From assembly GCA_003427395.1 (NCBI GenBank), contig BFEA01000007.1:2045738-2109737 (forward strand): 64,000 nucleotides of DNA, in the 5' to 3' direction. The notes beneath the pieces are model-generated. The model saw only the letters and a list, made by a program, of their open reading frames with translations. It did no database searches and was not told the origin of the DNA. This DNA comes from Chara braunii. Taxonomy: Eukaryota; Plantae; Charophyceae. Both the position numbers and the translations under genes were made by a program. Of the stretch, positions 1 through 38,200 are shown in pieces; position 1 is the first letter of the stretch; every line of letters starts with the position of its first letter.

Positions 1-10
1 GCCCGCCGCT

Positions 11-517
11 ATGGGGGGCCCTCGACTGTCAGGAGTATGTAGGGATGAGGCGGTGATGACAGAGAGGGTTCATGAGGAGGGACCCCGAGAGTTGGACATG
101 CCAGAGCGCGGGCCAGGGAGTGCGGTCGCACGAGGAGGTGAGGGTGCTAAGGCTATGGAGCCTGGACCTCAGGACCACGTGGGATTGCCCTTGTGTCATG
201 AGGTGACTACTGAGACCATGGGGGCGCCTTCGGCATCAAGTTCGCAAGGAAGAAAGAAGAAGACTGCCAGGTGGCACGATACCTCCTGTTTTTGGTGCAA
301 GGAGGGAGGGCATAGGGCCGTGGACTGTCAAGAGCTCCTTGAGGATAAGGTCAAGGGGCGAGTCGCGGAGGTCGACGGTAAGTTCTATGACAGACAGGGC
401 AAGATAGTGGAGCGAGCTCCAGATGGGGGCAGGGCTCAGTTGTATAGACAGAACCAGAAAGAATTGTGTAAGTACGGACCGGTCTGTCTATATATTGGTA
501 GGACTAGATGTCCTTGA
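11..517 (+). pseudogene. Gag-like retrotransposon ORF fragment with CCHC zinc knuckle (probably the 3' end of a longer ORF starting upstream of the window)
   Basis: CFWCKEGGHRAVDC fits the CX2CX4HX4C nucleocapsid motif; followed by non-coding DNA homologous to the retroelement at 39-53 kb. Confidence 0.75.
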
Positions 518-4523: not shown

Positions 4524-6328
4524 GGAGTTTCCGTCGCTGTTCGTGCGCAGTGAGTCGGTGTGTTGACGACAACATAGCGGGGTCGAATGAGGAAGCGGGC
4601 GAGCGAGAGGGACATGACGGAGAGGAGAACGAGCGAGGGAGGAGGCGGTCAGGCAGGCGCAACACCAAGCGTTTGGGAGGCAGCGCTAGCAGCGAGGGGA
4701 GGGCGATTGAACCCGGGCTGGAAAGTGTGCCAGGTACCTAAGGAGGGCGCAAGGGTGGCGAAGCAGGCTGACTGCACCCAGTCGGTGGGCGGTGCCAGGT
4801 GCATTCGGGACTCGAGGTGGTAGCGACAGAGAAGTGCGAAGGAAGGGCGGTGACATCGCTCGATTGCTTGGCGAGAACGAACGAGCGGAGGTGCGAGTTC
4901 GGGGTTCCTCGCTACGGTGGACCCGAAGTTGGGGTCAGTTTGGTTAAGAAGTTAATAGATAGAGAGTAAGGGGGAGGAACTGCTGCGCAGTGATAGCACG
5001 AAGGGATGGATATGGTCGGGCACTGCGAAACGGCTAGCTGAGCAATAGCATTGGCTTTGACGAGGGAGTAACGGAGTCTTCTAGCGCGATTGTTGGGGTC
5101 AGCGCTCGGGAGTGCTGGAAGAGGGGATGAATCTCTCCGCTTTCTTGTGGAAGATTCAGTTGTATTAGTCCTACTCTGCTAAGGGGTGTAATGCCAGGCG
5201 GACTGTTGCCGGGGACTTACCTGCCGGCCGAAAGCGCCACTCCACCGATTGGTCGACGCCTGCGGGTACAGAGAGGGAGGGATACTTACCAGTAGGCTTC
5301 GGGAACTTGAGTTGGAGGCCGTATTGAGAGGGGAAGCAGGGCAAGGAGAGCGATGGACAATTGGTGAAGGATGCTTGGGGGAACAGGGGAATGCTGAGAG
5401 GGAGAGAAAGGGAGGGGAGACTTACCTGCAGGCGATAGCACGGCTCGTTACATTGGCCAAGGAGCAGGGGGATAGGGGATCCATTTGCTAACCAGCATAC
5501 TGTCGGGCAAAGCGGGCTACGAGCTTGCAGGTCTACCTTCTATACTGCGGGTGGTTGAGGCAGACGAAGTGTGGCCGCCTTTCGATCTGCAAATTCCTGG
5601 GAGCCCTGCTGTCTGCTTGAGCAGGCTTTAGGCTACAGCAGTTGCTGCACCTACCGGTGGGTTGATGTGCTGCAGTTGATTCGGCTGTGCGGACTGCTGC
5701 AGGCCCGCTGTGTGTTGTGCTTGCTGGGCTTCCGCTGCACCCCGAGGCGCGGGTTCGCTGGGCACCTCCGGATCTTTGCGAAGGCGTACGCGGTTTGAGC
5801 ACCGCTGTTTAGAGCCGCACGGCTGCAACCTCATTGCAAAAAAGGGGGGGGGGGGGGTTGATATCGACAGTGTGACTGGTGTTGGGTCAAGCGGTTGCTA
5901 CTAGGCCGCCATTGCGGGGCCCTCAGGCGCGGAAGAATTGAAAACCCTCTCAAGCGAGTCTGAGTGGTTCTTTTCTGAGTCTGAGAGTTTGAAACTTCTT
6001 CTTCTGCCTCCCCGACTCTAAGTCTGGTCCTTGGTTCTGAGAGGAAGGCGGCAGGCGGGCGTGTGGCCCGTAACCCGCGCCAAGGCCTTTGTGGGAGGTC
6101 GCCCCACCGATTGCGGGACCTCTGCCGGGACTCAGGCGGAGTCCTGGAGGCAGGGAACTGAGTGGTAAACCCTTGACTCCCTCTATAAACCCTTCTATAA
6201 CCCCTACCTGTATATCTTTCTATGGTTTGTTGATTGCCTGAAAGCAAACTATGAATGAGATGGGTTGTATCTGGGGGAAAGTTGGGAGGAAGGCAGTATT
6301 GTGTGCAGCTTGACTGGGTCATTAAGGC

Positions 6329-7600
6329 TGGGAGGTCCCCTTAAGTTTGGGGAAGCCCAACGCTTTGTTTATTTTTGGACTGCATGGAGCCTCATGCCGC
6401 TCTATAAGTTTAGGTAGCCTGAAGCTCTGGAGGGCTGGGATGTCCCCATAAGTTTGAACAGTCATTTCGTCAAAACGGACATATTATATTTTTTGAACGA
6501 AATCAAAACTGACGTTTTTTGCCAAAATCCGGTCGGAATTTTTTGCTCATGGGGGTCCGGCGTTCCCAAAACGCCGGACCCCCCTGGTCTATGGTTGAGA
6601 CCAGATACAANAAAAAAAAAAAAAAAAGTATCTGGTCTCAACCATAGACCAGGGGGGTCCGGCGTTTTGGGAACGCCGGACCCCCAGGAGCAAAAAATTC
6701 CGACCGGATTTTGGCAAAAAATGTCAGTTTTGATTTCCTTCAAAAAATATAATATGTCCGTTTTGACGAAATGGCTGTTTTTGGGGAGACCTGGTGCTAT
6801 GAACTGCATGGAGGGTCAGGACGCTCTATAAGTTTAGGTGTTCTGACTTCTCTGACTTGTGGGGGTTTGACTATGAGTGGCTTTCAAGAACCCAAGGCGC
6901 TCTATAAGTTTAGGTACCTTGGGTTGCCTCGCTTTGTTTGGGGTTTTCGCAATTTCTTTGGTGCTGGACGAGGAGGTGTGAACCGCTCTATAAGTTTAGG
7001 TGGTTCAACCCTTCTCTTGTTTTGTTTTTAGCGGATAATTCTGGCAGGGGACAGGCTGCTCTATAAGTTTAGGTAGCCTATCCCACTGCCTCGCACAGAT
7101 TGGATCAGAGAGAAACGAACCTGGTTGAGGATCAGACCGCTCTATAAGTTTAGGTAGTCTGACCCAATGCCTCCCACATGTTGAAACCCAATGGATATAA
7201 CTTGGCTATATTATGTTACTATGTTATTAAGAATAGGCTAGTCAGGCTGCTCTATAAGTTTAGGTAGCCTGACTATAGCTTATCACAACAGGAGAGAGTA
7301 CAACTAAAGAGATACAACTGAAGGTATACTTGGGCAGGCTGAGCAATGTTCTAAGTTGAGCGGCTCAGCCCTATGCCCCCTTGAAGATTAAGTTCATATA
7401 TATATATATATATATATAACTTGGCTATTTAAACAGCTTAGGGCGACTCGAGTGGTCTAGTCGGACGCCCAAAGAAAAGAGAAGTAGTTGTGCCCTCTGT
7501 TTGTGTATACCTGGCCAAGTCAGAACGCTCTATAAGTTTAGGTATTCTGACTTTGGGCGTGGTTAAGTTTGGTGCGCTTTGTAAGTTTAGGTGCCCTGAC
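6329..7600 (+). repeat. Array of ~12 hairpins with conserved core YGCTCTA-TAAGTT-TAGGTR and variable complementary stems
   Basis: Copies at ~6329, 6392, 6434 (split by the MITE), 6815, 6892, 6979, 7043, 7130, 7239, 7337, 7515 and 7571. Example: TAGTCAGGCTGC-T-CTA-TAAGTT-TAG-GTAGCCTGACTA at 7239-7275. Confidence 0.9.
6457..6779. mobile_element. Foldback MITE (~152-bp terminal inverted repeats around a short poly-A), 4-bp target site duplication TTTG
   Basis: 6457-6608 is a near-perfect reverse complement of 6628-6779; TTTG at 6453-6456 and 6780-6783; removing it restores CCATAAGTTTGGGGAG, as seen in units B and C. Confidence 0.9.
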
Positions 7601-7899
7601 CTATGCCGTATGTAAGTTGGGTATGAGGAGATAACTCACTGAAAGATCATGAACTATTGTTTGTTCAGACTGGCTTGGGGATGGTGAGAGTACTTACCTT
7701 CGTGGTTTGGCCTGCATGTGCCTCAGTGAGATTACTACTTGGTCTGGATTTTCAGGTTGACAGGTAGTTGCTTTAGAGGCTCGCCACGTGCTAGAGCGAT
7801 AGGAGTTAGGTCAATTTCTGCATTTTCTGAGCTGATTTTATTTTACTTAGATCGATTTTTGCATTTTTCTGAGGGCCGATACTATACTTGAACCTGTAT

Positions 7900-8460
7900 A
7901 AATTCTGGTAAGTTACTTTCTCTACGGGAAGCGCTGCCGAAATTTCTACAGATTCAAGGAGTTAGACAAATTTTCGACTTGTCAAAGTTCAGTTTGTCTT
8001 TTCGTCATATCCGACTTAGTAAAAATCTGGAAAGTCTCCTTTTCTAAAGGGAGTGCTGCTAAAATTTTTGCTAATTCAGGGAGTTTGACAAAACTGGGCT
8101 TTGGGATGTCAGAGTTAGTCTTAGGTTTTAAACTTGGCTTTGTATGAATTTTTGGGAAGCACTTTTCTAGGGGGAGTGCTGCCGAAATTTCTGCAAAACT
8201 GAGGAGTTAGCCAGATTCTGTCTAAGTTGAACCCAAGGTTGGGGGTTCAGTTCAACTTCGACTTGGTACGAATCTGGGAAATCCCCAATTTCAAAGAGGG
8301 GGGCTGCCCAAATTTCTGCTAAGTCAGAGAGATAGACAAAATTTGATTTTCAAGAGTTATGGAATACTTCTTCTTTTGATATTCGAGCTGGTAAAAATTT
8401 TGAAAAGGCACTTTTCCTACGGGGAGCGCTGCCAAAATTTTCCTAAATTAGCGAAGTTGG
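7900..8460 (+). repeat. Five diverged ~124-bp tandem units, each with a hairpin around GGGAGYGCTGCCGAAATTT
   Basis: GCTGCY at 7933, 8055, 8178, 8303 and 8428 (spacing 122-125 bp). Confidence 0.85.
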
Positions 8461-10867
8461 ATTACATTTTGACAGGTGACGATTCTGGCGATCCACCCTA
8501 AATAGGAAAGATTCAGCCAGGGTCTGCCTTTGCTTTGGGCACCGCTTCGAGGTAGATTCAGGCCTGGCTAGCTAGGAGGATTTGAGTGAGAATATGTTAT
8601 GGAGTCGTATTCTCCATACGTTCATGATCTCAGCTTGGGGATTGACCTGTCATGTGTTACAGGTCGTCTTGATCTTTCGATTCAAGATCAGGACTAGATT
8701 CAGCTTGATCCCTTGAGGATCGTCTTCTGTTGTCACTGATAAAAGGTCGGTTGCCGATTCGTCAGTCCTCGACTCAATTTCAACTCATTCCCCGTACTCA
8801 ACCTAAAAGGCTTTAGCCCTGGTGGTTTTTACTGTTTGTTAAGGGTTTCACCCGGACTTTTATTGAATGGTTACTTAACAAAGGTACTGAGTATTTAATT
8901 GAGGTTGGTTGGACTGGCGGTTGGGGCTTGCATGGCTAAAGCGAAGGGGTATGAGCATAGAGAATGGTTGGGGTTAACTCCGTGTAGTGTGTGTTTTGTC
9001 ACTTGATTCTTGGTGTGGTTGCAGGTATGTCCTGTGGCTCGGATTTGGATTTGGACTGCCTACGATTCTATATACATATGCATGGTTGTGAGGGGTCCCA
9101 CTGTGCCTGTGAGAAGTGATCATCATAACTCTATCCCCCTTCCGTATGTATGTGTGCATATACGTATGATGAGTGTTCGGGAGGCCTAAAAGGTCATGTT
9201 AGCAACTGCGTGAGAGTTGGGATTGACGGACAGGGAAAACCCTCCATCCTGCCTATTCTGCGTCTTGGGGATTTCTTAGTCGGACGTTGGTCCTGGGTCG
9301 GGATTCAAGGTCCTTGTCCAGGACATCCCAAGCCCCAGGCCCTGAAGGGGAGGAGTCTCCCCTCGCATAGAGCCTATTTACTTTGGCCGGCAGGGCACTC
9401 CGCCTGAAGGGCGGAAATGTCGCGAGGGCCGAACGGCATGTCCTTCAGCCATTCAATATCGTGAGGGGTAGCCCTTCGCGATGGGTTCCTTCAGCCATTC
9501 AACATCGCTAGGCCGATGCCACGGTTACCACATATGATTCGCATCAGTGGTTGGCATAGGGTTGGCCTGCGGCCGCACAGTTTTATATCAGAGCCCCGCA
9601 CGCGACGCCTCACCGCCCCAACGTCTAAAAGTTATGGGACCGTCGGGCTTGCGCGTAGGCGCAGCGCTTGGGATTATCGTAGGCCGCCGACACCGCCCAC
9701 AAACGGGAAGTGTGTCCCAAGGCCATGAGTTTTTTTTGTTTTAAAGGCCATAAGACCTTTGCCCTATCCCCTCTTCTTGGGTTCGTGCGAGTCTTGTTGC
9801 TTCTTAGAGATTTTTTATAGTTGGACGTTGTAGTCCGTGACAGCCGTCAAAGTCAAACCCCTTGATTTTCACCCAGATCCCGGGGAGGACTCACCCCTAG
9901 GGCCGCGAGAGACGACTACCACCACAGGCATGGGCCTGTGTACCACCCGCTCTGCATAAGGGTGCAGAAGAGGGTGTGTGGTCTCCAACCACGCATGGCG
10001 GTTGTCTAGCGTTGAGAGATTAACCCTCAAGGCGCGTGTCAGCCGACACTTGAGTGTCGAACGCGACCCTCGAGATTAACGAGGACAGCGAGAGTACGAG
10101 TACCACGTGGTACGCCATCGTTGCGACCGCTTACGTGCGCTTGCATCGCGAGTCGATATGAGTTAGCCCTGTGTCCGCGTGATTTTTATACTAAGTCTCC
10201 TGCGCGACGCCTATCCAATTTCCGCGTCAGGAAGTTATAGGTTGGCTAGCGAGGGGAAAGGAGCGTTGTCGCGTTGTTTGCGTTGTGTCGTTTCGTGTGT
10301 ATGTGTGCGTGTTGTTGTCGTGTGGTTGTTAAGTGGTGTGCACGTGGGGTGTGGGATACGTCCTAGTCGACCGACAATGAGTCGCGCTTGGGACTTCAGC
10401 CCCCCAAGAGGTCGGTTCGCGTGCGAGTCCGATAGGGGCGTATTTACCGCGTGTACCCCCTATGCTACAGCGAACGAGAAACGCCCTCGGCTGCTCCACC
10501 TCTGCGATTGCAACTGATTAACTTTCGTACTGTGGACTGGTAGCTCGGCGGGGATACGCCCACCGAAGGGAGGTGACAACTCCCGTAAGGTGGAGGTAAG
10601 TTGTGCCTCGCGTAGGCCCTATCCTATCGTAGGGGCTCGCGAGAGGTATGGCTGACGCACTCGAACAGGGCGGCCCAAGGACGCTCCATTTGTGTATTCG
10701 TGACGAGGTTGGTCCAACTCCTGCGTGACGCGGCCGAGAGGGTCCCGCACTGCCACTCGCGGTGCCGGACCGATGCGCTCGACACTGTTTACCCTTGCTG
10801 CTACGCTCTGGCCGCAGTCACCAAAGAAAATAGAAGCTTCTCATAACTTTGACACAAGGTGCGTGAG

Positions 10868-10905: not shown

Positions 10906-13900
10906 GCCCAAGGACGCTCCATTTGTGTATTCGTGACGAGGTTGGTCCAACTCCTGCGTGACGCGGCCGAGAGGGTCCCGCACTGCCACTCGCGGTGCCG
11001 GACCGATGCGCTCGACACTGTTTACCCTTGCTGCTACGCTCTGGCCGCAGTCACCAAAGAAAATAGAAGCTTCTCATAACTTTGACACAAGGTGCGTGAG
11101 AGAGAGAGAGAAAAGAGAGAGACAGAGAAAGAGAGAAAGAGAGAACAGGAGAAAGATAGAGAAAACTTGTTTGCTACGGTTGAAAAAGAAGAAAAGAGAC
11201 GAACAATAAAAATACGTATGTTGAATACCTCTTTCCTATCATTCGACTTTCAGTCTCGAGCCTATTCTTACTGTGTACTGCTGTTTACGCTCGCTTCTGC
11301 CCTCTTGACACTTTGCAGCGGGCATGGCCCGCGACGCGCCTTTACTTGTAATAAAAATAATAAAACCGAATGTATGTTAGCGGAATCTTCAGTCAAGCAT
11401 AAGAGGGGAAAAAAATAAAAATGATAAATATAATATTTTTAATACTATCGTTATTAATCAAAATAACGATCAATAATAATAATGATAATAAATAACATAT
11501 ACAGGTTCCCTTCCCGATTTCGATACGGTCACGAAGAAAATACATTCACTTTCAAGGTTGTTGATCAGTATTTTCACTCGGAGGTAAGGGTTGTTTCTCT
11601 TGCTCCCTCTTTCTTCCTTTTTTTTTTTTTTCTTCAATTTTTCTTTCCTCTCGTCACCTTACTAGCCTGTGTTTGACTAGATATCAATAGAATAATATCT
11701 TCTTGGTAATAGCGATCACGGGGCTTAATGATTATTAGATGTATAGATTTACAAGTCGAAGGAACTTACCTCTGTTGATCTGATTCCTTCGATATCCTAT
11801 CGAGTGATATCGCCGAGGAAAACGAACTCCTTCACGAGATATGTTCCACAGTACACGTTGAAAGCACTACCTCTATCGACTGCGACCAGATTGTCGAGCG
11901 GGTGGGTCTTTCCCTTTCCTCCTTCTCTGAATCTTTCCTCTCCCACCAAGTGTCCTCTTATCACCTCGCCTCCTTTTCTCATTCCTTTTCCACGCGGGTG
12001 CTACTCGCTCTTGCCCCGGTGATTTTCTGATCTTTGTTAGCCCTCGTTGCTTTCTCTGCGCCTTCGTCAGATATCTTCTTCTCTTTCATACATCCGCTCG
12101 CAGTTAGTGCACTAAGATTCCTTCGCTTACGCCTTTGTTTTCTTGTTCACGCTCGCCTCATCCTATATGAATGTTTACCAACTCGGGCTTCGTCCGTGAC
12201 TTTCCCCGATCTTGCTTCTGTAAGCGTCGGTGAACTTCCACCGTACCCTGTTAGTCTCCCAAGGCCGAAAAACCTGCCCTTCACATCTGGGCAGACTCAG
12301 TTTTTGTGTTCACATAGTAGGTGAAAATACTTACGTTAGTAGTCAGAATACAGAGGTTAGGATTATCTACGCTCAAAGTCAGTTAGTTCGCTCTACTCCA
12401 ACTGTCTCAACACTCACGTAGGTGTACCTGTGTTACGTGTTTTGTCCTCATAGTTCTCGTTTGCTTACCGATTTCCTTTTGACTTCGTGAACTTTATCCT
12501 TATCCTAGGCAGTATTCCAACCCTACGAACTATCGAACTAAAACCCGGTCGCGCCTCGTGCGGACAACTGTCGAGTTTCTGCCACGGGCACGTGCCCAAA
12601 TCCTCATTCCTAATAATCTCACACATGATCTACAAGTCACGGTTTGATCGAAGGCGGGGTTTTTAAAGGGTCGGGCCTACCTTGTTTTTTTCATCAAAAA
12701 AAGTATGTTGAGAGGGCACGATGAACTCGATCCCCGTACCTTCGGCGCACCTGTACCTATTTGGCTAGCTCTTAGTTTGGTTAAGATAGGAAAAAACCTG
12801 CCATATGTAGAGTACAAGGTTTGGTTTTACGGGCATAACAAATTTATGGCCTGCCTTTTATGGTTAGTCTAGGCCGGCATCGGTAGTCGCTGCCTGGTAT
12901 GGTAGGGATCATGTTTTTCCTTATCTGCCCCGACCGCATGGTCGGAGTTATATTAATTTTTCAAGTTTGTTTTTGAGTCTAGGCTAGGAGTGCTAGGTTA
13001 GACATCCTTGGGCTCGAACTGATTTATTTTGTGTTACCGTTTGAACTTTTGACCGGTTTTATATCGTACCCTCTGCATCTCGCGCAACCACTCGCAGACC
13101 TTGCGACCGAAGTCTTTTAACTTTTATTAAATCTTATTATTTATCGTACGCGTTGTGTTAACATTTGTCGTCACTTAGCATCCCGGCCTCAGTGGTCGAG
13201 GAATCTGTCTCACGGTACTGTCGAGCGCATTGGTTTGGCACCGCAGGAAACGGGGCGAGACCCTTCCGAGCTCGTCACGCAGGAGTTGGTCTGATCCTCG
13301 TCGCGAATACACATGGAGCTTCCGCAAGCCGCTCCGGCCGAGTGCACCAGCCATACCTCTTGCGAGCCCCTACGACAGGATAGGGCCTACACGAGGCACG
13401 ACTTACCTCCACCTTACGGGAATTGTCACCTCTCTTCTGTGGGCGTTTCCCGCCAAGCTACCAGTCTAGAATACGAAAGTTAATCAATTGCAATCGCAGA
13501 GGTGGACCAGCCGAGGGTGTTTCTCGTTCGCAATAGCATAGGTGATACGTGCGGTTTTACGCCTCTATCGAACCCACAAGCGAACCGAAGTCTTGGGGGG
13601 TTAGATCCGAAGTGCGACTCGTCGCTGGTCGAGTATGACGCATCCCACACTCCACGCATACACCACTCTAAAGACATAAAAATAAAAACACACACACTCA
13701 CACGTTCAAAAAACGACACAGAACAAATAATGCAACACACTCCTAGTCCCTTAGTAGTCATCCCATAACTCTCCGATGCAGAAATCGGATAGGCGTCGCG
13801 CACCAGACTTAGTATAAAACCGCGCTGACGCAGGGCTAACTCATATGGACTCTCAATGCAAGCATACACAAGCCGACGCAATGATGACGTACTATATAGT

Positions 13901-14999
13901 ACCCATACTCATGCGGTCCTCGTTAATCTCGAGGGTCGCATTCGGCAGGCACGCGCCTTGAGCGAATGATCTCTCGACGTTGGACAACCGCCAAGTGCGG
14001 TTGAGAACCACACCCTCTTCTGCACCCTGCGGAGACTGGGTGGTACACAGGTTCATAGCTGTGTTGTTAATCGTCTCTTATTGCCTTGGAGACCAGCTCT
14101 TTCATCTAGGGCATCGAGATAAATCAAGAGGGTTGACTTTAACGGCTGCCACAGACTACAACGTTCAACTATAAAAAAACTATAAAAGAAAAGGATAAAA
14201 GAGGATCTCTTTTTTCTCTCAAAAACATAATCTGTTTAACTCTTACTCGCGGTCACAGTAGGTCGCGCGAAACACTCAAGACATATTTTTTTATATATAG
14301 AGAGAGGGTTATAAATATGTGACGATCACTTCTCACAATCAGAGTGGGACTCCTCTCAGCCATATATATATGTATGTGAGTGCAGGCAGTCAAATCCAAA
14401 GTACGAATCACCAAACATATCTACAATCACATCAAAGATTCAGCCAAAAGTCCGTGCACTGCACGGCGTCAACTTCAGCCATTCTCTGCACTCTTACCCC
14501 TCGCTTTAGCCATTCAAGCCTCACTCTTGTGCAACTCCTCAAAATAAAATACTCAATACTTTTCTTTAGATGGTTATTCAAATAAAGTCCGGACGGAAAT
14601 ACAACAAAACAGTTCAAATCACAAGGCTGAAGCCTTTAGGTTCAGTGACAAGAGTGAATTGGAGTTGGGTCGAAAACTGACGAATCGTCAACCGACTTGT
14701 TATTAGTGATAACAGAAGATGATCCTCTTGAGATCAAGTTGAATCTTATTCCAAATCCTGAATCGAGTGTCCAAAGAAGGCCTGTGTCATAAAACAAGTC
14801 AATGCCCAAGCTAAATCATCAGTGTATGGAGAGTGAATCTCCCTAACACATTCTCATCTAAGGTCCACCTACAAGCTAAGCCTAAACCTACAAGCTAAGC
14901 CTAGGCCTACCTCTAAGCCAGTGCCCACCGCAATGTAGAACTATGACAGTATTTCCCCTATTCAGGATGAATTACCACAATTGTCAACTATCAAAATAT

Positions 15000-15570
15000 A
15001 GTCTTACTCATTTAAACTAAGAAAATTTCGGCACCACTTCCCGTAGGAAAAGTGTCTTCTCAGAATTGATACTCGCTCAAATATGAAAACAAAAACCAAA
15101 CTCTAATTTTAAAAAATCAAATTTTGTCTAACTCCCTGAATTAGTAAAAATTTTGGCAGTACTCCCTTTAGAATGGTAGAACTCCCAGATTTATACTAAG
15201 TCAGATAGGACCTCAGAAGTCAAACTTGAGTTCGACTTCAAGACAAAGTTCAACTAACCCCTTAGATTTGTAGAAATTTCGGCAGTGATTCCCGTAGAGA
15301 AAGTGTTATTCCAAGATTTATTCAAAGCTAAATTAAAAAGTATAGAAAATAACTTTGACTTCCAAAAGTTCAATTTTGTTTTAACTCCTTCAATCAATAA
15401 AAATTTGGGCAGCACCCCCTTTAGAAAAATGAGACTTCCCAAATTTTTACTAAGTCATGTATATAATTTAGACAAACTGAGCTTTTGAAAATCTAAATTT
15501 GACTAACTCTTTGGTTTTGTAAAAAATTCAGCAGTGCTTCTCATTGAGAAAGTGACTTACCAATATTTAT
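15000..15570 (-). repeat. Five ~125-bp hairpin units (unit B copy of the second array)
   Basis: Reverse-complement motif at 15030, 15155, 15281, 15408 and 15530. Confidence 0.85.
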
Positions 15571-15893
15571 ATAAGACGAAGTATAATAAATGATTATATA
15601 ACACGAAATATAATAAATGATCCCAGAAAATGCAGAAATTGTCCTAAGTAAAAAAAAATTAGCTAAAAAATTGCAGGAATTGAAGCTAACTTCTATGACT
15701 CTAGCACGTGGTGAGCATCTAAAACAACTACCTGTCAAACTGAAACTCAGACTAAGTCGTAACGTCACTAAGTCACATGCAAGGCCAAACCACAAATATA
15801 AGTACTCTCACCATCCCAAAATCATCTTATCAAACAATAGTTCAAAGTCTCTCAATGATTTATCCCTTTATACCCAGTTTAAATAGGGCATAA

Positions 15894-16682
15894 AGCTAGA
15901 CCACCCAAACTTATGGAACATGTCTAGCTCATAGGGCAAAACAATTTTTCTCTTCTTTGGGCATATGACTAGGCCATCCTAGTCGTCCTGAACTATTTAA
16001 GTATCTAAGTTTTATATAACTATCTGCACTTAGTCTTTTGAGGTAGCATATAACTGAACCGATCATCCTTAGCTCGAGATTCAGTCTGCCCCTTCGTATT
16101 ACAAGTTTACTCTTAATTAGTACTCTCTTCAGTTGGTGATAAACTATAGTCAGACCACCCAAACTTATGGAACCTTGTCTGACTAACCTGTTCATAAGTA
16201 GGATAGTAATAAAGTATAGTCAAGTTATAACTTTTTGGTTTCAGCATGTGCATGACATTGGACCAAGACCACCCAAACTTATGGAACCTTTGCAGTCCTC
16301 CGTCCGATTCTTTCTCTTATCCAAAGCAGGAAGAGGCTGAGCCACCAAAACTTATGCGAAATTCTCAGACCTCCTCGTTTAGAACCAAAAGAAACTGGAA
16401 GAAACTCAAAGTAAACTAGGCGACCAGGCCACCCAAACTTATGGAACGTGCTCAAACCTCCTCGTTTAGAACCAAAAGAAACTGGAAGAAACCCAAAGTA
16501 AACAAGGCGTTCAAGCCACCCAAACTTATGGAAGATGCTTGGCCCCTGAAAAGTCATCCACAGACAGCCCTCGCAAGTCAGAGCAACAAGACCACCCAAA
16601 CTTATGAAACATGTCTGGTTCTCCAGGTAACTCAAAAATAAACATAGCACTGGGCCTCCCCAAACTTATGGAGACTTGCCCA
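15894..16682 (-). repeat. Array of 8 hairpins, core GTTCCA-TAAGTT-TGGGTG (unit B copy)
   Basis: CACCCAAACTTATGGAAC-type motif on + at ~15894, 16147, 16261, 16336, 16425, 16511, 16587 and 16651; most are flanked by complementary arms such as AGCTAGAC...GTCTAGCT. Confidence 0.9.
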
Positions 16683-19600
16683 ACCTTTGATTGACCCAGT
16701 CAGACACAAGCAAAACTGCCTTCCTCCCAACCTTCCCCAGATGCAATCCCACAATCTGTTTTCAGCCAATACAATAAAAACTGAAATTGGATTTGCACAA
16801 CCATTCTTTTATCAAGTCTGATTTATGTCCTTAAATCAAACTGAAAGTCAAAGTAGGGAGATAGGCAATATACCCAGTCAATCATAGCACGAAATATAGT
16901 TAGGGGTTATACGGATTTATAGAAGGAAATCAATGGTTACCTTTCAATTCCCTGCCTCCAGAACTCCTCCTGAGTTCCAGCAGAGCTCCCTCAATCGGTG
17001 GGTTGACTCCCGACAGAGTCTTGACGCGGTCCTACGGATTGCAATCCCGCATGCCGCCTTCCTCTCTTAACAGGATTAGACTGAGAGTAAGATAGATAGA
17101 AGGAGGGGTTTTAGACTCTCGAGATACAGGAGAGGGACAAACTCAACTCCTAAAAGATTGCCTCAATACCTTCATGCGTCTGAGGGCCCCGCAATGATGG
17201 ACAATACGAGCAATCGGTAGTCAAACCACGACCAAGCGCAAGGCAGATAACGCTCTGATGAACCTCCAAATCGCGGCGGTTACCTCCTCGCAGAACCTAG
17301 CCCTCCACCTTCGATGATACTACCGTTTCTCGTGGTCTAAACGCCGCTACGCAGCCTAGAAAGGTTTCTCTCGAATAGAGCACACCCTTGTCTTCTTACT
17401 CGAAGACGGACGTAAACGCAACGAAAACGCAGTAGCAAGGCATCACGCAGTGCACAATGAAATGCAAAAACATGCACAACCTAAATCAAGTGGGAATAAG
17501 TTACAAGCACCCGGTCAACAGTACTCCAAAAACTTCAGCAGTCCGCTAGTAGAAATAGCCTGGGATAGTAATATGACTGAGCCTGGAACGCGACAGTAAT
17601 GGCCCCCCAATCTGTCTCAACAGAAACCCAACTGCAGACACCAAGGTCCGCAGTAGCCGTAGCAACCATTCATAGCAGAAATCTTGACAAGGCAACACGG
17701 CTGGCCACACAGTCAAACCACTGTCAAGGATACCACAGTGATCAAACTGCCCGCGCGATCCACAGTCCCTCAATCACACACTAATGTCACCCCCATTTAC
17801 ACCACCAACTCCATTTGCCAAATAGTTAATTCCTTAATTATTTTTTCTAACTCTTCTACCCCTCCTCCTACTTCCTCTTTTATACACCCTTTCTCCTTTC
17901 AAACATCCATAACTCAATCTTGAGTTGTGAGAGTAGGAGACTCCACCTTGGCGTCAGTCTGTCACTTCTGTATGAACGAACAACTTGAAGCTCCCCCACG
18001 GATCAGGGAGGAGTCACGGCATGTATAATGACGCTCTAAAGTAATCATGAGGTGATGAATCAGTGAGGTCATGAGCGTACTTAGCCTACACTAAGAGCAC
18101 AAACGGTGTGTTCGATAACACTATGTAACCGCGGTTGCCTTTCTGTTAAACTCTCGGTCTACTGTCCGCCCTCGTGTTCACATCTACGCCCCGACCAACA
18201 ACCAACCTTGCCATCGCGCGGTTGACGTCACTCCACAGTCACTATCTGGACGGGCAACGCATTGATCCACAGGTAAGTCTTCACCCCTTGGCCGACCCTT
18301 CATTCCCCCTCTCGACAATCGGTGGGCAAGCCACGCATCAATGCACAGATAAGTCCCGAACCTTCACGGCCCGCGGTCGGGGCAACCGGGGTTTTTTAAA
18401 GTCAGACACTGTCCAACTCTTTCGTTGAATTGGAGGACTTCATGTGACTGATGTTTGCCAAAGTTTATTCAGATCAACCCAAGTGACTAAGACTTTTTGT
18501 GAATCAGATGTCGTTGACGTCTGACTTAAATGAATTTAGTTGCTAGTATGGCGGGTTGTTAGCAGTTCTTGATAGGGCCACAGGGGCAAGCGGTCGTGGA
18601 AAGACTAAAGCTAGACTATCCTATCTAAAAGACTGACGCAAGCTTGATAAGACGCGCAATTCAGGGCTTTAGTAGGTCAAAAAGGTGGTGGCGTCAGGGG
18701 TTAGATCGACGGCGCGAGAAAATTAGGAAGTGTTTTTTTTTTTTTCAAAGGTCATGGAGGTACCGCGTACGCAGCTAAGGCTCATGGGCTAGACCACAAG
18801 TCGTTGGGCTAGGACGCCGTCGGCTCGGGGGCAGTGCGGCTGACTAACGGAAAATATGGCAGGCCAAGCCTGCTTCGGCTGCAATAGATGAGTCTACTGG
18901 GGGGTACTTGCCGATTCGGTGGAGACGGCTCGACTTCTGAGATCTGAGTCTTGCGCTCAGACGAGGAGGAGGAGTACCTCTGACCACTTCGTAGAGGGAG
19001 AGGCATGCAACACTTCAAGCAATGCCCCTGATGAAGAATCATGCACAAAGCAACTTGTCATCCAAAAACATTGGAAACGGATGAAGACTGGTATGTGCGT
19101 TGAATCTCACGTCGGCAGTAGGCTGAAACGAATAACTTTGGCAACCCGTGTCATCAAGTTAAAATTTAGGAAGCCGACTACCTTGTCGGCTGCATTTATA
19201 TTATCGTCAATAGCCAACTTGTTGTTGGCGGTTGCATGATTGTTTTGGGGTGTTTGACCTGAGATGGTCAAAGGTTGATTCTTTACGATGTAAGTATATG
19301 CAGATGTTTTATTTTATTTCTTTTGATTGTGTGTTAAAGGGACTATGATTAATGTTGGGTTTCACGCTTGGTTGAGACCGTCCTAGTCGACCGGCGTTCG
19401 ATTCGCACTTGGGAGATCAACACCCTAAGGAACTGACGACGTCGGGTTCGCTTGGCGTTAACCAAGCGTATCTATACTACAACGAACATGCAAACGCCCT
19501 CGGCCGACCTACCTCTGCAATTGCATCTAAAAACTTTCGCATGTGGGTCAGTAGCTCGGTAAGGATACGCCCCTAAGGGTGGTGACAACCCCTTAGGGAA

Positions 19601-21120: not shown

Positions 21121-21262
21121 GGGCAAACCCGCCACATGTAGGTGGATTGCAAAATCAGGGATGCTGGTCCGCTGCATATCTTGAAGGTAGTAACAAATAT
21201 TCAAATGAGAACTTTCGAAGCCCGAAGTGGAAACTCGCAACTCCATGCGGTGACAACCCGTG

Positions 21263-29291: not shown

Positions 29292-32200
29292 AAGAGAAAA
29301 CAAGAGAAAGAGAGAAAAAACCTGTTTGCTACCGTTGAAAAAGAAAAAAAGAGACGAACAACAAAGATACATATGTTGAATACCTCTTTCCTATCATTCG
29401 ACTTTCAGTCCCGAGCCTATTCTTACTGTTTACTGATGTTTACCCTCGCTGCTGCCCTCTTGACACTCTGTCGCGGGCATGGCCCGCGACGCACCTTTAC
29501 TTGTAATAATTATAATAAAACCGAATGTATGTTAGCGGAATCTTCGGTCAAGCATAAGGGGAAAAAGAAATAAAAAATGATAAATATAATATTATTAATA
29601 CTATCATTATTAATCAAAATAACGATCAACAATAATAATGATAATAAATAACACATACAGACTCCCTTCCCGATTTCGATACGGTCAAGAAGAAGGTACA
29701 TTCACTTTCAAGGTTTTGATCAGTATTTTCACTCGGAGGTAAGAGTTTTCTCTATTTCTCTCTATTTCTTCCTTTTTTTTTTTCTTTTTTTTTTTTTTAC
29801 CTTACTGGCCTGTGTTTGACTAGATATCAATAGAATAATATCTTCTTGGTAATAGCGATCACGGGGCTTAATGATTATTAGATGCATAGTTATACAAGTC
29901 GAAGGAACTTACCTCTGTTGATCTGATTCCTTTTGATGTCCTATCGAGTGATATCGCCGAGGAAAATGAACTCCTTCACGAGATATGTTCCACAGTACAC
30001 GTCGAAAGCATTACCTCTATCGACTGCGACCAAATTGTCGAGCGGGTGGGTCTTTCCCTTTCCTCCTTGTCTGAATCTTTCCTCTCCCACCAAGTGTCCT
30101 CTTATCACCTCGCCTCCTTTTCTCATTCCTTTTCCACCCGCGTGCTACTCGCTCTTGCCCCCGTGACTTTCTGATCTTTGTTAGCCCTCCTTGCTTTCTT
30201 TGCGTCTTTGTCAGATATCTCATTCTTTTTCTGTTATCGGCTCGCAGTTAGCGCACTAACATTCCTTCTCGTACGCCTTTGTTTTCCAGTTCGTGCATGT
30301 CTCATCCTATATGAGCGCTTACCATATGCTCCACATTACACGCCGAAAACACTGCCTCTATCGACTGCGACCAGATTGTCGAGCGAAAGAGTCTTTCCCT
30401 TTCCTCCTCCTTTGAATCTTTCATTTCCCACCAAGTGTCCTCTTGTCACCGCGCCTCCTTTTCTCATTCCTTTCCCACCCGCTTGCTACTCGCTTTTGCC
30501 CCCGTGACTTTCTGATCTTTATTAGCCCTCCTTGCTTTCTCTGCGCCTTCATCAGATATCTCCTTCCCTTTCTTTCATCCGCTCGCAGCTAGCGCACTAA
30601 CATTCCTTCGCGTACGCCTTTGTTTTCCCGTTCACACTTGCCTCATCCTATATGAACGCTTACCAACTCGGGCTTCGTCCGTGACTTTCCCCGACCTTGC
30701 TTCTGCGAGCGTCGGTGAACTTCCACCATAACTTGTTAGTCTCCCTAGGTCGAGAAACCTGCCCTTCACATCTGGGCAGATTCAATTTTTGTGTTCACAT
30801 AGGAGGTGAAAATACTTACGTTAGTAGTCAGAATACAGAGGTTAGGATTATCTACGCTTTAAGTTAGTTAGTTCACTCTACTCCAACTGTCTCAACACTC
30901 ACATAGGTGTACCTGTGTTACATGTTTTGTCCTCATAGTTCATGTTTGTTCACCGGTTTCCTTTTGACTTCGTGAACTTTATCCTTATCCTAGGCAGTAT
31001 TCCAACCCTACGAACTATCGGACTAAAACTCAGTTGCGCCTTGTGCGGGCAACTGTCGGGTTTCAGCCACGTGCAGGTGCCGAAATCCTCATTTCTAATA
31101 ATCTCACACATAATCTACAAGTCACGGGTTCAAGCCTTGCTTGATCGAAGGCGGAGTTTTTAAAGGGTCATGTCTACCTTGTTTTTTCATCAAAAAGAGC
31201 TTGCCCAGATGGCAGGATGGACTGGATCCCCGTACCTTCGGCTTATGGATCCGCACCTGTACCTACTTGGCTAGCTCTTAGTTTGGTTAAGATAGGAAAA
31301 ACCCTGCCATATGTAGAGTACATGGTTTGGTTTTACGGGCATAACAAATTTATGGCCTGCCTTTTATGGTTAGTCTAGGCCGGCATCGGTCGTCGCTGCC
31401 TGGTATGGTAGGGATTATGTTTTTCCTTATCTGCCCCGACCGCATGGTCGGGGTTATATTAATTTTTCAAGTTTGTTTTTGAGTCTAGGCTAGGAGTGCT
31501 CCTTTCAGTTTCTTTTTCCATCTGCGGGTTTGACGTCCTTAAGCTAAAACTGATTTATTTTGTGTTACTGCTTGAACTTTTGACCGTTTTTAGATCGTAC
31601 CCCTTGCATCCCGCGCTACCCTTCTCAGACCTCGCGACCAAAGTCTTTTAACTTTTATTAACCCTTATCATTTACCGTACGCATTGTGTTAACATTTGTG
31701 GTCACTTAGCATCCCGGCCTCAGCGGTCGAGGAATCCGTCTCACGGTACTGTCGAGCGCATTGGTCTTGCACCGCACGAAACGGGGCAGGACCCTTCCGG
31801 CCGTGTCACGCAGGAGTTGGTCTGATCCTCATCGCGAATACACATGGAACTTCCGCAAGCCGCTCTGACCGAGTGCACCAGCCATACCTCTCACGAGCCC
31901 CTGCGACAGGATAGGGCCTACACAAGGCACGACTTACCTCCACCTTACGGGAGTTGTCACCTCCCTTCGGTGGGCGTATCCCCGCCGAGCGACCAGTCCA
32001 CAATACGAAAGTTAATCAATTGCAATCGCAGAGGTGGACCAGCCGAGGGCGTTTCTCCTTCGTTGTAGCATAGGTGGTACGTGTGGTTTTACTCCTCTAT
32101 CGGACCCTCTCGCGAACTGAAGTCTTGGGGGGTTCAGGTCCCAAGTGCGACTCGTCGCTGGTCGACTAGGACGCATCCCACACTCCACGCGTACACCACT

Positions 32201-33544
32201 CTAAAGACATAAAAATAAAAATACACACACACACACACGTACATAAAACGACACAGAACAAACAACGAGACACACTCTACACTCCTACTAGTCCCTTAGT
32301 AACCATCCCATAACTCTCCGATGCAGAAATCGGATAGGCGTCGCGTGTTAGCCTTAGTATAAAACCGCACTAACGCAGGGCTAACTCATATCGACTCGAA
32401 ATGCAAGCATACACAAGCAGACACAATGATGGCGTACTATATGGTACCCATACTCATGCAGTCCTCGTTAATCTCGAGGGTCGCATTCGACACTCAAGTA
32501 TCGGCTGACACGCCTTGAGGGAATGATCTCTCGACGTTGGACAACCGCCAAGTGCGGTTGAGAACCACACCCTCTTCTGCACCCTGCGGAGAGTGGGTGG
32601 TACACAGGTTCATATCTGTGTTGTTAATCGTCTCTTATTGCCCTGAAGACCAGCTCCATCATCTAGGGCCTCGAGAGAAATCAAGGGGGATGACTTTGAC
32701 GGTTGCCAAGGACTACAACGTCTTACTATAAAAACTATAAAAGCAAAGGATAAAAGAGGATCTCTCTTTTCTCTCAAAAACATAATCTGTTTAGCCCTTA
32801 CTCGCGGTCACAGTAGGTCGCGCGAAACACTCAAAACATATTTATTTATATGTAGAGATAGGGTTATAAATATGTGACGATCACTTCTCACAATCAGAGT
32901 GAGACTCCTCTCATCTATATATATATATATATATGTATGTGAGCGCAGACAGTCGAATCCAAAGTCCGAATCACCAAACATATCTACAATCACATCAAAG
33001 ATTCAACCAATAGTCCATACACTGCACGGGGTCAACTTCAACCATTCTGTGCACTCACACCCCTCGCTTTAGCCATTCAAGCCTCACTCTTGTGCAAACT
33101 CCTCAAAATAAAATACTCAATAGTTTTCTTTAAATGGTCATTCAAATAAAGTCTGGACGGAAACACAACAAAACAGTTCAAATCACAAGGCTAAAGCCTT
33201 TAGGTTGAGTGACAAAAGTGAATTGGAGTTGAGTCGTAAACCGACAAATCGGCAATCGACTTGTTATCAATGATAACAGAAGAGGATCCTCTTGGGATCA
33301 AGCTGAATCTAGTCCAAATCCTGAATCGAGTGTCCAAAGAAGGCCTGTGTCATAAAATAGGTCAATGCCCAAGCTAAATCATCAGTGTATGGGGAGTGAA
33401 TCTCCCTAACACATTCTCACCTAAGGTCCACCTACAAGCTAAGCCTAAGCCTACCTCTAAGCCAGTGCCCAACGCAATGTAGAACTATGACAGTATCTTC
33501 CCTATTCAGGGTGGATTACCACAATTGCCACCTATCAAAATATA

Positions 33545-34110
33545 GTCCAACTCCTTTAAACCAAAAAAATTTTGGCACCACTTCCCGTACGAAAAGTGTT
33601 TTCTCAGAATTTATACCAGCTCAAATATGAAAACAAAAACCAAAGTTTAATTCTGGAAAATCAAATTTTGTCTAACTCCCTGAATAAGTAAAAATTTGGG
33701 GAGTTCTCCTTTCAGAAAGGTAGAATTCCCAGATTTATACTAAGTCAGATAGGAACGCACAAGTCAGACTTGAGTTCGACTTTAAGACAAAGTTCAACAA
33801 CCCCCTTAGATTTGTACAAATTTGACAGTGCTTCCCGTAGAGAAAGCGTTATTCCAAGATTTATACAAAGCTAAGTTAAAAGTATAGAAAATAACTTTGA
33901 CTTTCCAAAACTCAATTTTGCTTTAACTTCTTAAATCAAAAAAAAATTGGGCAGCACCCGTTTTAGAAAAATAAGACTTCCCAAATTTTTATTAATTCAT
34001 GTATATAATTTAGACAAACTAAGCTTTTGAAAACCAAAATTTGACAAACTCTTTGGTTTTGTAAACATTTCGGCAGCACTTCTCGTAAAGAAAGTGACTT
34101 ACGAAAATTT
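33545..34110 (-). repeat. Five ~125-bp hairpin units (unit C copy of the second array)
   Basis: Motif at ~33574, 33699, 33824, 33950 and 34072. Confidence 0.85.
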
Positions 34111-34408
34111 ATAGAAGACGAAGTATAATAAATGATCCCAGAAAATGCAGAAATTGTCATAAGTAAAAACAAATTAGCTAAGAAAATGCAGGGATTGAAG
34201 CTAAATTATATGACTCTAGCACGTGGCGAGCATCTAAAACAACTACTTGTCAAACTGAAACTCAGACTAAGTCGTAATCTCACTCAGTCACATGCAAGGC
34301 TAAACCACAAATGTAAGTACTCTCACGATCCCAAAATCATCTTATCAAACAATAGTTTATAGTCTCTCAATGATTTATCCCTTTATACCCAGTTTAAATA
34401 GGGCATAA

Positions 34409-35213
34409 AGCTAGACCACTCAAACTTATGGAACATGTCTAGCTCAGCTATTCAGTATACATAAACTTAGGGCATAACAACTTTTCTCTTCTTTGGGCAT
34501 ATGACTAGACCACCCTAGTCGCCCTCAACTATTTAAGTATCTAAGTTTTATATAATTATCTGCACTTCGTCTTTTGAGGTAGCCATTAATTGAACCGATC
34601 ATCTTTAGCGCGAGATTCAGTCTGCTCCTTCGTATTACAAGTTTACTCTTAATTAGTACTCTCTTCAGTTGGTGATAAGCTATAGTCAGACCACCCAAAC
34701 TTATAGAACCTTGTCCGACTAGCCTGTTCATAAGTACGATAGTAATAAAGTATAGTCAAATTATAACTTTTTGGTTTCAGCATGTGCATGGCATTGGACC
34801 AAGACCACCCAAACTTATGGAACCTTTGTGGTTCTCCGTCTGATTCTTTCTCTTATCCAAAGCAGGAAGAGGCTGAGCCATCAAAACTTATGGAACATGC
34901 TCAGACCTCCTCGTTTAGAACCAAAAGAAACTGGAAGAAACTCAAAGTAAACTAGGCGACCAAGCCACCCAAACTTATGGAACGTGCTCAGACCTCCTCG
35001 TTTAGAACCAAAAGAAACTGGAAGAAACCCAAAGTAAACAAGGCGGCCAAGTCACCCAAACTTATGGAACATGCTCCCTGAAAAGTCATCCACAGGTAGC
35101 CCTCGCAAGTAAGAGCAACCAGATCACCCAAACTTATGAAACATGTCTGGCTCTCCAGGCAACTCAAAAATAAACATAGCACTGGGCCTCCCCAAACTTA
35201 TGGAGACTTGCCC
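34409..35213 (-). repeat. Array of 8 TAAGTT-loop hairpins (unit C copy)
   Basis: AAACTTAT core at eight positions, corresponding to those in unit B. Confidence 0.9.
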
Positions 35214-38200
35214 AACCTTTGATTGACCCAGTCAGACACAAGCAAAACTGCCTTCCTCCCAACCTTCCCCAGATGCAATCCCACAATCTGCTTTCAACCA
35301 ATACAATAAAAATTGAAACCGAATTTGCACAATCATCCTTTTATCAAGTCTGGTTTATGTCCTGAAGTCAAACTGAAAGTCAAAGTAGGGAGACGGACAA
35401 TATACTCAGTCAATTATAACAAAAAATATAGCTAGAGGTTTTACTGGCTTTATCGAAGGAAAACAATTGTTACCATTCAATTCCCTGCTTCCAGAACTCC
35501 TCCTGAGTTCCGACAAAGCTCCCCCAATCGGTGGGCTGAGTCCCCACAGAGTCTTGATGCGGTCCTACAGATTGTAATCCTGCCTGCCGCCTTCCTTTCT
35601 GAACAGGATTAGACTGAGAGTAAGATAGATAGAAGGATGGGTTCTTGACTCTCGAGATACAGGAGAGGAACAAACTCAACTCCTAAGAGAGGGTCTCAAT
35701 ACCTTCATGCGTCTGAGGGCCCCGCAATGATGGCCAATACGAGCAGTCGGTAGTCAAACCACGACCAAGCGCAAGGCAGATAACACTCTGATAAACCTCC
35801 AAATCGCGGCGGTTACCTCCTCGCAGAACCTAGCCCTCCTCCTTCGATGACACTACCGTTTCTCGTGGTCTAAAAGTCGCAACGCAGCCTAGAAAGACTG
35901 CTATCGAATAAAGCATACCCTTGTCTTCTTACTCGAAGACCGATGTAAACAGAACGAAAATGTTGTAGCAAGGCACAACGCAGTGCACAATGAAATGCAA
36001 AAACATGCACAACCTAAATTAAGTGGGAATAAGTTACAAGCACCCGGTCAACAGTACTCCAGAATACTGCAGCAGTCCGCTAGTAGAAATAGCCTGGGAT
36101 AGTAATATGACTGAGCCTGGAACGCGACATTAATGGCCCCCCAATCTATCTCAACAGCAACCCAACTGCAGACACAAAGGTCCGCAGTAGCCGTAGCAAC
36201 CATTCGTAGCAGAAATCTTGACAAGGCAACATGGCTGGCCACACAGCCAAACCACTGTCAAGGATACCACAATGATCAAACTGCCCGCGCGATCCACAGT
36301 CCCTCAATCACACACTAATGTCACCCCCTTTTACACCACCAGCTCCGCTTGCCAAATAGTTAATTCCTTAATTATTTTTTCTAACTTTTCTGCCCCTCCT
36401 CCTGCTTCCTCTTTTATACACCCTTTCTCCTTTCAAACATCCGTAACTCAATCTTGAGTTGTGAGAGTAGGAGACTCCACCTTGGCGTCAGTCTGTCACT
36501 TCTGTATAAACGAACAACTTGAAGCTCCCCCACGGATCAGGGAGGAGTCGCGGCATGTATAATGACGCTCTCAAGTAATCATGAGGTGATGAATCAGTGA
36601 GGTCATGAGCGTACTTAGCCTACACTAAGAGCACAAACGGTGTGTTCGAGAACACTATGTAATAGCGCTTGCCTTTCTGTTAAACTCTCGGTCTACTGTC
36701 CGCCCTCGTGTTCACATCTACGTCCCGACCAACAACCAACCTTGCCACCGAGCGGTGGACCTCACTCCACAGTTACTATCAGGACGAGCAACGCATGGAT
36801 CCACAGGTAAGTCTTCACCCCTTGGCCGACCCTTCACTCCCCCTGTCGGCAATCGGTGGGCGAGCCACAGATCAATCCACAGATAAGTCTCGAACCTTCA
36901 CGGCCCGTTGTCGGGGCAAATACCCTGACAAGGGTATTTGTCGAGGGTTTTCAAAGTCGGACGCTATCTGACTCTTTCGTTGAATTGGAGGACTTGATGA
37001 GACTGATGTTTGACAAAGTTTATTCAGATCAACCCTAGTGACTAAGACTTTTTGTGAATCAGACGTCGTTGACGTCTGACTAAAATGAATTTAGTTGCCA
37101 GTATGGTGGGTCGTTAGCAGTTCTTGATAGGGCGGCAGGGGCACGTGGTCGTGGAAAGACTAAAGGTAGACTATTCTATCTAAAAGACTGACGCGTGCCT
37201 GATGAGATGCGCAATTCAGGGCTTTAGTAGGTCAAAAGGTGGTCGCGTGAGAGGTCAGATCCGTGGTGCGCGAAAAAATTAGAAAGGGTTTTTTTTTTTT
37301 TTTTAAAGTTCGCGGAGGTACCGCGTACGCAGCTAAGGCTCATGGGCTAGACCACAAGCCGTTGGGCGAGAACGCCGCCGGCTCGGCGGCAGTGCGGCTG
37401 GTTAACGGAAAATACGGCAGGCCGAGCCTGCTTCGGCTGTAACAGATGGGTCTACTGAGGGGTACTTGCCGATTCGGTGGAGACGGCCCGACTTCTGAGA
37501 TCCGAGTCTTGCGCTCGGACGAGGAGGAGGAGTACCCCTGACCACTTCCTAGAGGGAGAGGCATGCAACACTTCAAGCAATGCCCCTGATCAAGAATCAT
37601 GCGCAAAGCAACTTGTCATCCAAAAATATTGGAAACGGATAAAGACTGGTATGTGCGTTGAATCTCAGATCGGCAGTAGACTGAAATGAATAACTTTGGC
37701 AACCCGTGTCATCAAGTTAAAATTTAGGAAGCCGACTACCTTGTCGGCTGCATTAAAATTATCGTCAATAGCCAACTTCTTGTTGGCGGTTGCATGATTG
37801 TTTTGTGGTGTTTGACCTGAGATGGTTAAATGTTGATTCTTTACGATGTAAGTATATGCATATGTTTTATTTTATTTCCTTTGACTGTGTGTTAAAGGGA
37901 CTAGGATTAATGTTGGGTTTCACGCTTCGTTGAGACCGTCCTAGTTGACTGGCGTTCGCTTCGTACTTGGCAGATCAGCGCCCTAAGGAACAGACGACGT
38001 TCGGGTTTGCTTGGCGTTAACCAAGCATATCTATACTACAGCGAACGAGCAAACGCCCTTGACTGACCTACCTCTGCAATTGCATCTAAACGTTTTCGCA
38101 TGTGGGTCAGTAGCTCGGTACGGATACGCCCCTAAGGGTGGTGACAAATCCTTAGGGAAGGAAAGCTTATGCCCTGTGTAAACCTATCCTTTCATAGGGG

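Follow-up and report, generated by a model that had tools for sequence, protein, structure and literature searches.

A row of constant-loop hairpins with copy-specific stems in a gypsy-linked repeat unit of Chara braunii, a putative retroelement RNA signal

The window analyzed here is a 64,000-nucleotide stretch of Chara braunii contig BFEA01000007.1. It is eukaryotic DNA rich in repeats, in which five gaps account for 1,533 N; a tRNA search of the window found none. A non-coding repeat unit, A, occupies 5904..10784 on the forward strand and has 70-79% likeness to two sister units on the reverse strand, B (13219..17204) and C (31750..35740). B and C are 90% alike and lie within the two copies (11014-21233 and 29168-39243) of one duplicated 10-kb unit, and they were therefore counted as a single lineage and not as independent. 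The right end of A is sharp, at ...CTCGACA, and the right ends of all three units are identical in letters (...GCGCTCGACA); the flanks differ between A and B/C. Summed contig depth in the DNA run X1, which is not a copy number, was ~5,000-760,000 on the unit as against 9-26 upstream of A and B. The hairpin-bearing unit is a member of a very large repeat family.

Some features that would suit an LTR were seen. The right end in CA is common to A, B, and C, and a purine tract (A6 G14) followed by T-TG at 5838..5860 on the forward strand may represent the polypurine tract and mark where a long LTR starts on its left side. This tract lies ~45 nt before the onset of both B/C homology and high DNA depth. 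B and C have no counterpart of it and no matching left end, and the alignment of the sequence upstream of A with that upstream of B was no better than shuffles. Within the window, neither a target-site duplication nor a second LTR was found for the three units, and no primer-binding site follows their right ends. The skew of G over C was positive in all 500-nt bins but one from 1 to 10,800, that is, from the ORF end described below through unit A. In gene models, pieces of the unit stand on both sides of coding regions, which would fit a long LTR of 4-5 kb. Unit A is probably such an LTR, with the limits given above as putative ones, of a Chara gypsy group.

The end of a post-pol ORF with a CCHC knuckle is found at 2..472 on the forward strand. 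It is from the gypsy group linked to unit A and possibly from the same element. Among 89 candidates, 37 were related to the ORF end (188-469) at E values up to 0.001, 36 of them from Chara braunii and one being the window's own model; the best matches showed 72-94% identity to Chara braunii gypsy proteins. The relatives are gypsy polyproteins with an extra ORF after the integrase that ends in a CCHC knuckle, and a gypsy domain order was found among them (protease, RT, RNase H, and rve in P0030; Gag, RT, and integrase in P0014). The post-pol knuckle is related to the Gag knuckle region (E 1e-7), and the group has two related CCHC knuckles (P0001, P0012, P0014, P0030). Judged by this motif, the long post-integrase ORF of the Chara gypsy group is a possible second RNA-binding protein.

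The gypsy coding region is linked to unit A through gene models at other loci. P0039 joins an exon corresponding to 5904-6164 to downstream Gag and RT. P0012 begins with the stretch at 10569..10646 (forward strand), which lies near the right end of A and has a conserved donor (AG/GT at 10646), and continues into Gag. In P0040 the exon is placed after a Gag-like region and not before it, an order that fits a 3' LTR and is no proof of one. The Gag links of the unit are thus three automatic gene models in a nested-repeat genome. The mobile-element setting suggested in a preliminary description of this DNA is supported by these gypsy links and by the high repeat number.

Several other features of the window were recorded. 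Sequences that we take to be Nextera adaptor remnants lie near 10870-10905 and 21980, between or beside duplicated stretches (10672-11100 and 21935-22000); the adaptor-bearing stretches are local mis-assembly. A broken Helitron Rep/PIF1 helicase gene (23500-27750; PIF1 E 1e-58) is situated directly upstream of the duplicated 10-kb unit, which may be Helitron cargo. Inside the 10-kb unit, 20930-21010 and 38950-39030 bear a resemblance to reverse-complemented large-subunit rRNA; Rfam gave no rRNA match at these two places. A related right end, with ~70% likeness to those of A, B, and C and in opposite orientation to B/C, occurs at 19380-19830 and 38030-38394 and has no hairpin array. The possibility that B and the inverted end at 19380-19830 together form a DIRS-like element was dismissed, since low-copy sequence lies between two high-copy sides. 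The stretch 44194-46500, upstream of gypsy 3'-related sequence at 48900-50130, contains several decayed ORFs in which an unknown domain is repeated and for which Pfam gave no match.

Close to the left end of unit A is a row of forward-strand hairpins with the loop TAAGTT. The preliminary description counted about 12 copies of a ~17-nt core; there are indeed ~12 TAAGTT hairpins in A, but the exact 17-nt core, GCT-CTA-TAAGTT-TAG-GT, is present at only eight places (loop starts 6405, 6829, 6905, 6991, 7064, 7145, 7255, and 7533). Near-cores with up to two mismatches to a 14-nt core pattern are found at 6342 and 7582. Within the two-mismatch pattern A, B, and C together have 27 sites, eight of them in B and nine in C. 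The B array (~15890-16690) has eight hairpins with the core CCA-TAAGTT-TGG, and the C array lies at ~34405-35220.

The row opens with a variant hairpin at 6329..6360, in which the TAAGTT loop is carried on a C/G-run stem and which is the counterpart of the first hairpin in B (16668) and C (35200). Core hairpin 1 (6388..6426) has the exact core and an imperfect outer stem and was recognized by pattern match and covariance model. Arm pairing and the covariance model identify core hairpins 2 (6812..6850), 3 (6888..6926), 4 (6974..7012), 5 (7047..7085), 6 (7128..7166), 7 (7238..7276), and 8 (7516..7554); the six central ones are spaced 73-110 nt apart. Between hairpins 7 and 8 is a copy described earlier as keeping only the TAAGTT loop on a different stem, and this was seen (7337..7372, loop at 7352); at the corresponding place B/C have an outer stem but not this loop. 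A decayed core hairpin follows at 7565..7603. Most relatives have C at 7579 and C at 7588 there, and a loop-closing G-C replaces A-U (X1 summed depth 2,210/2,408 and 3,588/3,757, unphased).

The row is interrupted by a foldback (MITE-like) insertion of ~320 nt at 6456..6780, outside the array proper and without assigned strand, which has near-perfect inverted arms and a central A run with one N. It splits a second variant hairpin (6449), whose left half is at 6435..6455 and whose right arm resumes at ~6780-6790; in other copies this hairpin is uninterrupted (joints 6422/6433 to 6780). The insertion is repeated elsewhere in the genome and is present in RNA reads, and its centre, the A run with the N, may be an assembly artefact. 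This insertion was absent from the preliminary description, as were the upstream exon with its donor and the concerted change of the core, both described below. A second, degenerate array of five ~125-nt units is located at 7880..8470 on the forward strand and recurs at 14990-15570 and 33540-34110 on the reverse strand. Its single units fold, although no consensus structure of the 125-nt units was found on either strand. The units carry a conserved word, and the array may recall a motif of land-plant chromovirus LTRs; a 12-letter word of this array led only to unrelated literature. The neighboring elements contained no second constant-loop array.

As drawn, the hairpin has a UAAGUU loop on a closing stem of C-G, Y-R, and A-U and a constant unpaired U represented as a bulge. 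Outward of the bulge come Y-G and a near-invariant G-U, then one variable pair, and finally the outer stem with its 5-9 pairs. The RNAalifold consensus retains only the four pairs next to the loop. A covariance model built from 23 copies detected 25 sites at E<0.01, every one within the arrays of A, B, and C.

The left arm of each hairpin had been described as complementary to its own right arm, and the copy-specific arm pairs quoted as examples are all present in the sequence. In an arm-swap test restricted to exact or near-exact copies (eight in A, seven in B, and seven in C), the permutations that reached the duplex energy of the observed pairing numbered 2 of 40,320 for A, 38 of 5,040 for B, and 4 of 5,040 for C, so that arms pair better with their own partners than when swapped. 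Among the eight exact A copies 90% of cells were paired, compared with 27-44% in slid controls, and double-sided changes occurred at 8/8 variable pairs, a count that none of 500 shuffles equalled. The effect was weaker in B/C, where 80% of cells were paired and the double change at 4/12 pairs was matched by 138 of 500 shuffles; the C array as a whole folded no better than shuffles (z -0.75). When 36 position-matched outer pairs of A were compared with the better of B or C, 16 were the same, 9 had a double change with pairing kept, 4 had a single change with pairing kept, and 7 were broken, counts that are biased upward by the choice of register and partner for best pairing. Family variants near 7582 give one further double change (>90% contig depth, unphased). 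The hairpin array is confirmed as real and non-random, and selection on copy-specific pairing is supported.

Between A and C, six copies can be matched by their place in the array. Their cores are most alike within an element (0.94 within A and 0.89 within C, compared with 0.76 between the two at the same or other positions), whereas likeness of the downstream spacers follows position (0.70 for the same and 0.51 for other positions). With cores alike by element and spacers alike by position, the core has switched at every position without homogenization of the spacers. The switch replaced CTA/TAG by CCA/TGG and was accompanied by linked changes in the inner loop. The both-sided character of this change in B/C, reported previously, is confirmed, but a single inherited event accounts for it. 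The concerted core change would be explained if the core had co-evolved with a binding partner, and short-patch conversion between copies could likewise account for it.

The word ATAAGTTTRG occurs 21 times in the three arrays, always on the same strand. Folding of the A array (z -7.6 sense, -6.9 antisense) is nearly equal on the two strands, and energy thus gives no choice between them. The preliminary description had derived the strand from G-T wobbles. That argument holds for the core, with 47 G-U and 5 A-C cells, which are not independent and reflect few underlying events, but not for the outer stems, with 9 G-U and 5 A-C cells (p=0.42). The argument amounts to one near-invariant G-U and one inherited run of wobbles and does not draw on the variable stems.

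Near-equal folding of both strands, which is also obtained with DNA parameters, and the absence of a G-U excess in the outer stems would both fit if the conserved entity were a DNA motif, namely factor-binding sites in the LTR, and if the arms arose because quasi-palindromes were corrected by template switching when the DNA was replicated or the RNA reverse-transcribed. A DNA-binding partner would fit the concerted change of the core equally well, and Sirevirus LTRs bear multiple palindromes that vary among families and loci, according to the cited portion of one study (PMC4728375). Nevertheless, we consider a DNA motif rather unlikely. The Chara core is not palindromic. At columns 12/28, 21 of 23 copies retain the G-T and in no copy has it been corrected to a Watson-Crick pair, and a run of three wobbles in B/C pairs only on the transcribed strand. 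Furthermore, the RNA peak of the unit comes before the array, whereas the Sirevirus palindromes, in the same cited portion, precede the TATA box.

Transcription was assessed with three poly(A) RNA runs from one study (X5, X6, and X7; 6-13% of each run was read), mapped on B and A. The RNA peak of the unit is an exon-like stretch at 5904..6164 on the forward strand, which ends at a GT donor at 6165-6166. It was the highest bin in X5 and X7, with depths of 23 and 50 on B (85% likeness) and of 12.8 and 18.3 on A (88%). Almost all of these reads had one direction, which under the usual stranded protocol is that of the TAAGTT strand. In X6 the whole unit was covered on both strands, with antisense exceeding sense. 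Use of the sense strand, as earlier proposed, is therefore supported by stranded poly(A) reads of relatives in X5 and X7, with both strands present in X6. Reads 99% alike to the locus numbered 3 of 150, 16 of 3,537, and 0 of 192 in the three runs; with so few, the expression is that of relatives and not of the locus itself. The exon is probably non-coding: all sense frames contain stops, the codon-position pattern is weak, and the frame-0 peptide matched none of seven candidates. P0038, tried as a relative of the frame-2 peptide, is an unrelated low-complexity repeat protein.

Reads broke off beside the GT donor, at 6158-6164 in A and at the equivalent 16939-16948 in B. The loose ends at the donor had at least seven different onward sequences in X5/X7. 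Five of the seven listed do not start with GT; the other two do and could be unspliced. Among the read joints listed, none led to an acceptor inside the unit, and for this reason splicing is deduced from the loose ends. We infer that the break-offs represent splicing from many loci into diverse acceptors. Two of the loose-end continuations were searched in the window and had no match there. Canonical donors facing away from A and B were also noted in low-copy upstream stretches, at 5200-5440 (reverse strand) and 18270 (forward strand), and are possibly those of an antisense spliced transcript.

The GT donor precedes the first hairpin by 177 nt. Depth over the array was 0-4, ~tenfold below the exon at similar DNA depth, and was sense-biased in X7 and mostly so in X5. 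This tenfold drop makes the array likely intronic.

TAAGT is the donor consensus after its first G. The hairpin loop accordingly resembles donor intron positions +2 to +7, and the copies at 7582, 7613, and 7909 read GTAAGT. Together with the start of the array 177 nt behind a donor, this would suit hairpins that control splicing or the choice of 3' end, for example as U1 decoys that keep RNA partly unspliced or block early polyadenylation in the 5' LTR. However, nearly all copies have A and not G before the loop, leaving ~five pairs to U1, and the conserved bulge and wobble would be left unexplained. Control of this kind is very unlikely.

Both Gag packaging and a protein sponge were suggested in the preliminary description. 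The location behind an apparently used donor favors the psi-like option. If the array instead formed a CsrB-like sponge or scaffold RNA of its own, or gave rise to small RNAs, constant loops repeated on variable stems and the pervasive both-strand reads in X6 would fit. Against it, the stems are short, and the three poly(A) runs, in which small and untailed RNA is invisible, contained no separate abundant RNA and, along the array, neither a peak in RNA depth nor an accumulation of read starts or ends. We regard this explanation as highly improbable. Untailed genomic RNA would also escape oligo-dT libraries; BARE makes such RNA, according to the cited part of one study (PMC3735527).

The array was compared with described RNA families. 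Rfam gave 11 matches for the whole window at E values up to 5, all below gathering score and none on a core hairpin, and 10 matches for 6780-8500 at E values up to 10, all of 13-20 bits, far below gathering score, and at chance level. The sub-threshold matches to miRNA models reflect only the long hairpin of the foldback insertion. The proposal that the consensus belongs to no described family thus stands as far as Rfam matches at gathering score are concerned. In the literature, with partial coverage of subscription journals and with supplements outside the scope, no description of the array or of a UAAGUU loop hairpin was found, nor was there a match for a Chara LTR-retrotransposon stem-loop or a gypsy tyrosine recombinase. 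Matches to a two-core pattern at three metagenome loci and one viral locus, which shares a contig with one of them, were rejected as chance; they are bacterial or phage DNA with no similarity to the window and no outer stems. The viral contig (L001/L004 1-200) has a 90-nt exact tandem repeat containing the 18 letters of the B/C core, again with no outer stem and judged to be chance. None of the phage records matched the array. An analogy to attC or REP hairpins does not fit a charophyte retroelement and was discarded; such hairpins need a prokaryotic setting with an integron integrase or a REP-associated transposase, whereas the neighboring ORF is that of a Chara gypsy element.

A fixed loop and bulge on an exchangeable stem are characteristic of the IRE, HIV TAR, the MS2 and PP7 operators, and the dispersed packaging signals of ssRNA viruses. 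The Chara hairpin differs from all of these in loop sequence and stem geometry. The LTRs of Sireviruses (maize Ji and Opie) are similar in having several hairpin-forming repeats in a plant LTR that vary by family and locus (PMC4728375, cited portion). These are copia elements with true palindromes before the TATA box and, in that portion, no constant loop, bulge, or wobble; the Chara array belongs to a gypsy group and lies past the first exon, after the RNA peak. The psi signals of HIV-1 and MLV, as presented in the cited part of the source (PMC2951377), are several stem-loops that follow a 5' splice site of an LTR retroelement whose Gag has a CCHC knuckle, an arrangement that the Chara array behind its apparent donor would resemble. 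Psi hairpins are, however, mutually different and include a palindromic kissing loop, whereas the Chara array consists of 8-12 like hairpins over ~1.3 kb and seems to lie inside the LTR-like unit, not behind a primer-binding site. UAAGUU is not its own reverse complement, and hence the palindromic loop of psi has no equivalent here and the hairpin loop would not be a dimerization loop.

As in psi, stem-loops follow one another on the genomic RNA strand, and they show covariation, a single orientation, and sense reads in X5 and X7. Like hairpins in a row, whose free stems carry an unvarying loop, bulge, and wobble and which start 177 nt past the donor of a gypsy-linked unit, are most simply read as a multivalent protein-binding signal on unspliced RNA. 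We tentatively propose, by analogy with psi and at somewhat less than even confidence, that the array is a putative multi-copy Gag-binding packaging signal kept only in unspliced RNA. With the array in an intron of the leader, spliced RNAs would lose the hairpins and the full-length RNA would keep them. The zinc knuckle of Gag, or that of the second knuckle protein of the element, would read the loop and bulge, which the outer stems would merely hold up. The many hairpin copies would provide avidity and nucleate particles. As the reader protein drifted, the whole array would follow, and the core would come to differ between subfamilies at every position while the spacers stayed position-specific.

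The same position behind a donor would be occupied by an export element of the RRE, MTE, or RTE type. The array may instead be a nuclear-export element for intron-retaining RNA, whose hairpins would each take up a molecule of a host export factor or of the post-pol knuckle protein. In this reading the group's additional ORF after pol, which has a CCHC knuckle of its own, would encode the RNA-binding protein. Structured export elements are known in LTR elements, and RNA export has not been directly studied in plants, according to the cited parts of two sources; the HIV RRE, musD MTE, IAP RTE, and MLV PTE would share with the Chara array the character of a structured signal kept in unspliced RNA (PMC5767303, PMC12786077). 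The known elements are, in these parts, single complex folds or rows of unlike stem-loops, with no repeated loop-plus-bulge unit described, and not rows of like hairpins. On balance we consider an export element unlikely, although we place it next after packaging.

For the packaging signal that we prefer, an extension is conceivable although improbable. The array might be a subfamily barcode, in which the dozen hairpins and the knuckle that reads them, in the Gag or post-pol protein of the same element, would evolve jointly; retrotransposon subfamilies competing within one genome would then each package or export their own RNA and keep out parasites. If this were true, the thousands of copies per genome would allow the hairpin code and the protein sequence to be matched by subfamily.

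The array is considered, by analogy, to work in the putative manner of known retroelement RNA signals. It could be a previously undescribed form of this known type of signal; a repeat library of the alga could name the unit. How LTR retrotransposons of the green lineage choose and transport their own genomic RNA has been little studied. The cited part of a 2025 review states that RNA export has not been directly studied in plants (PMC12786077), and that of a 2013 paper that little is known of packaged RNA beyond BARE (PMC3735527). The array supplies a compact, well-delimited RNA motif that covaries, together with a probable place in an intron and two knuckle proteins as candidates, and the question of RNA selection can thereby be put to a direct test in vitro. 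The joint switch of all cores, between spacers that remained position-specific, suggests that signal and reader co-evolved, a process which may be traceable through this large repeat family.
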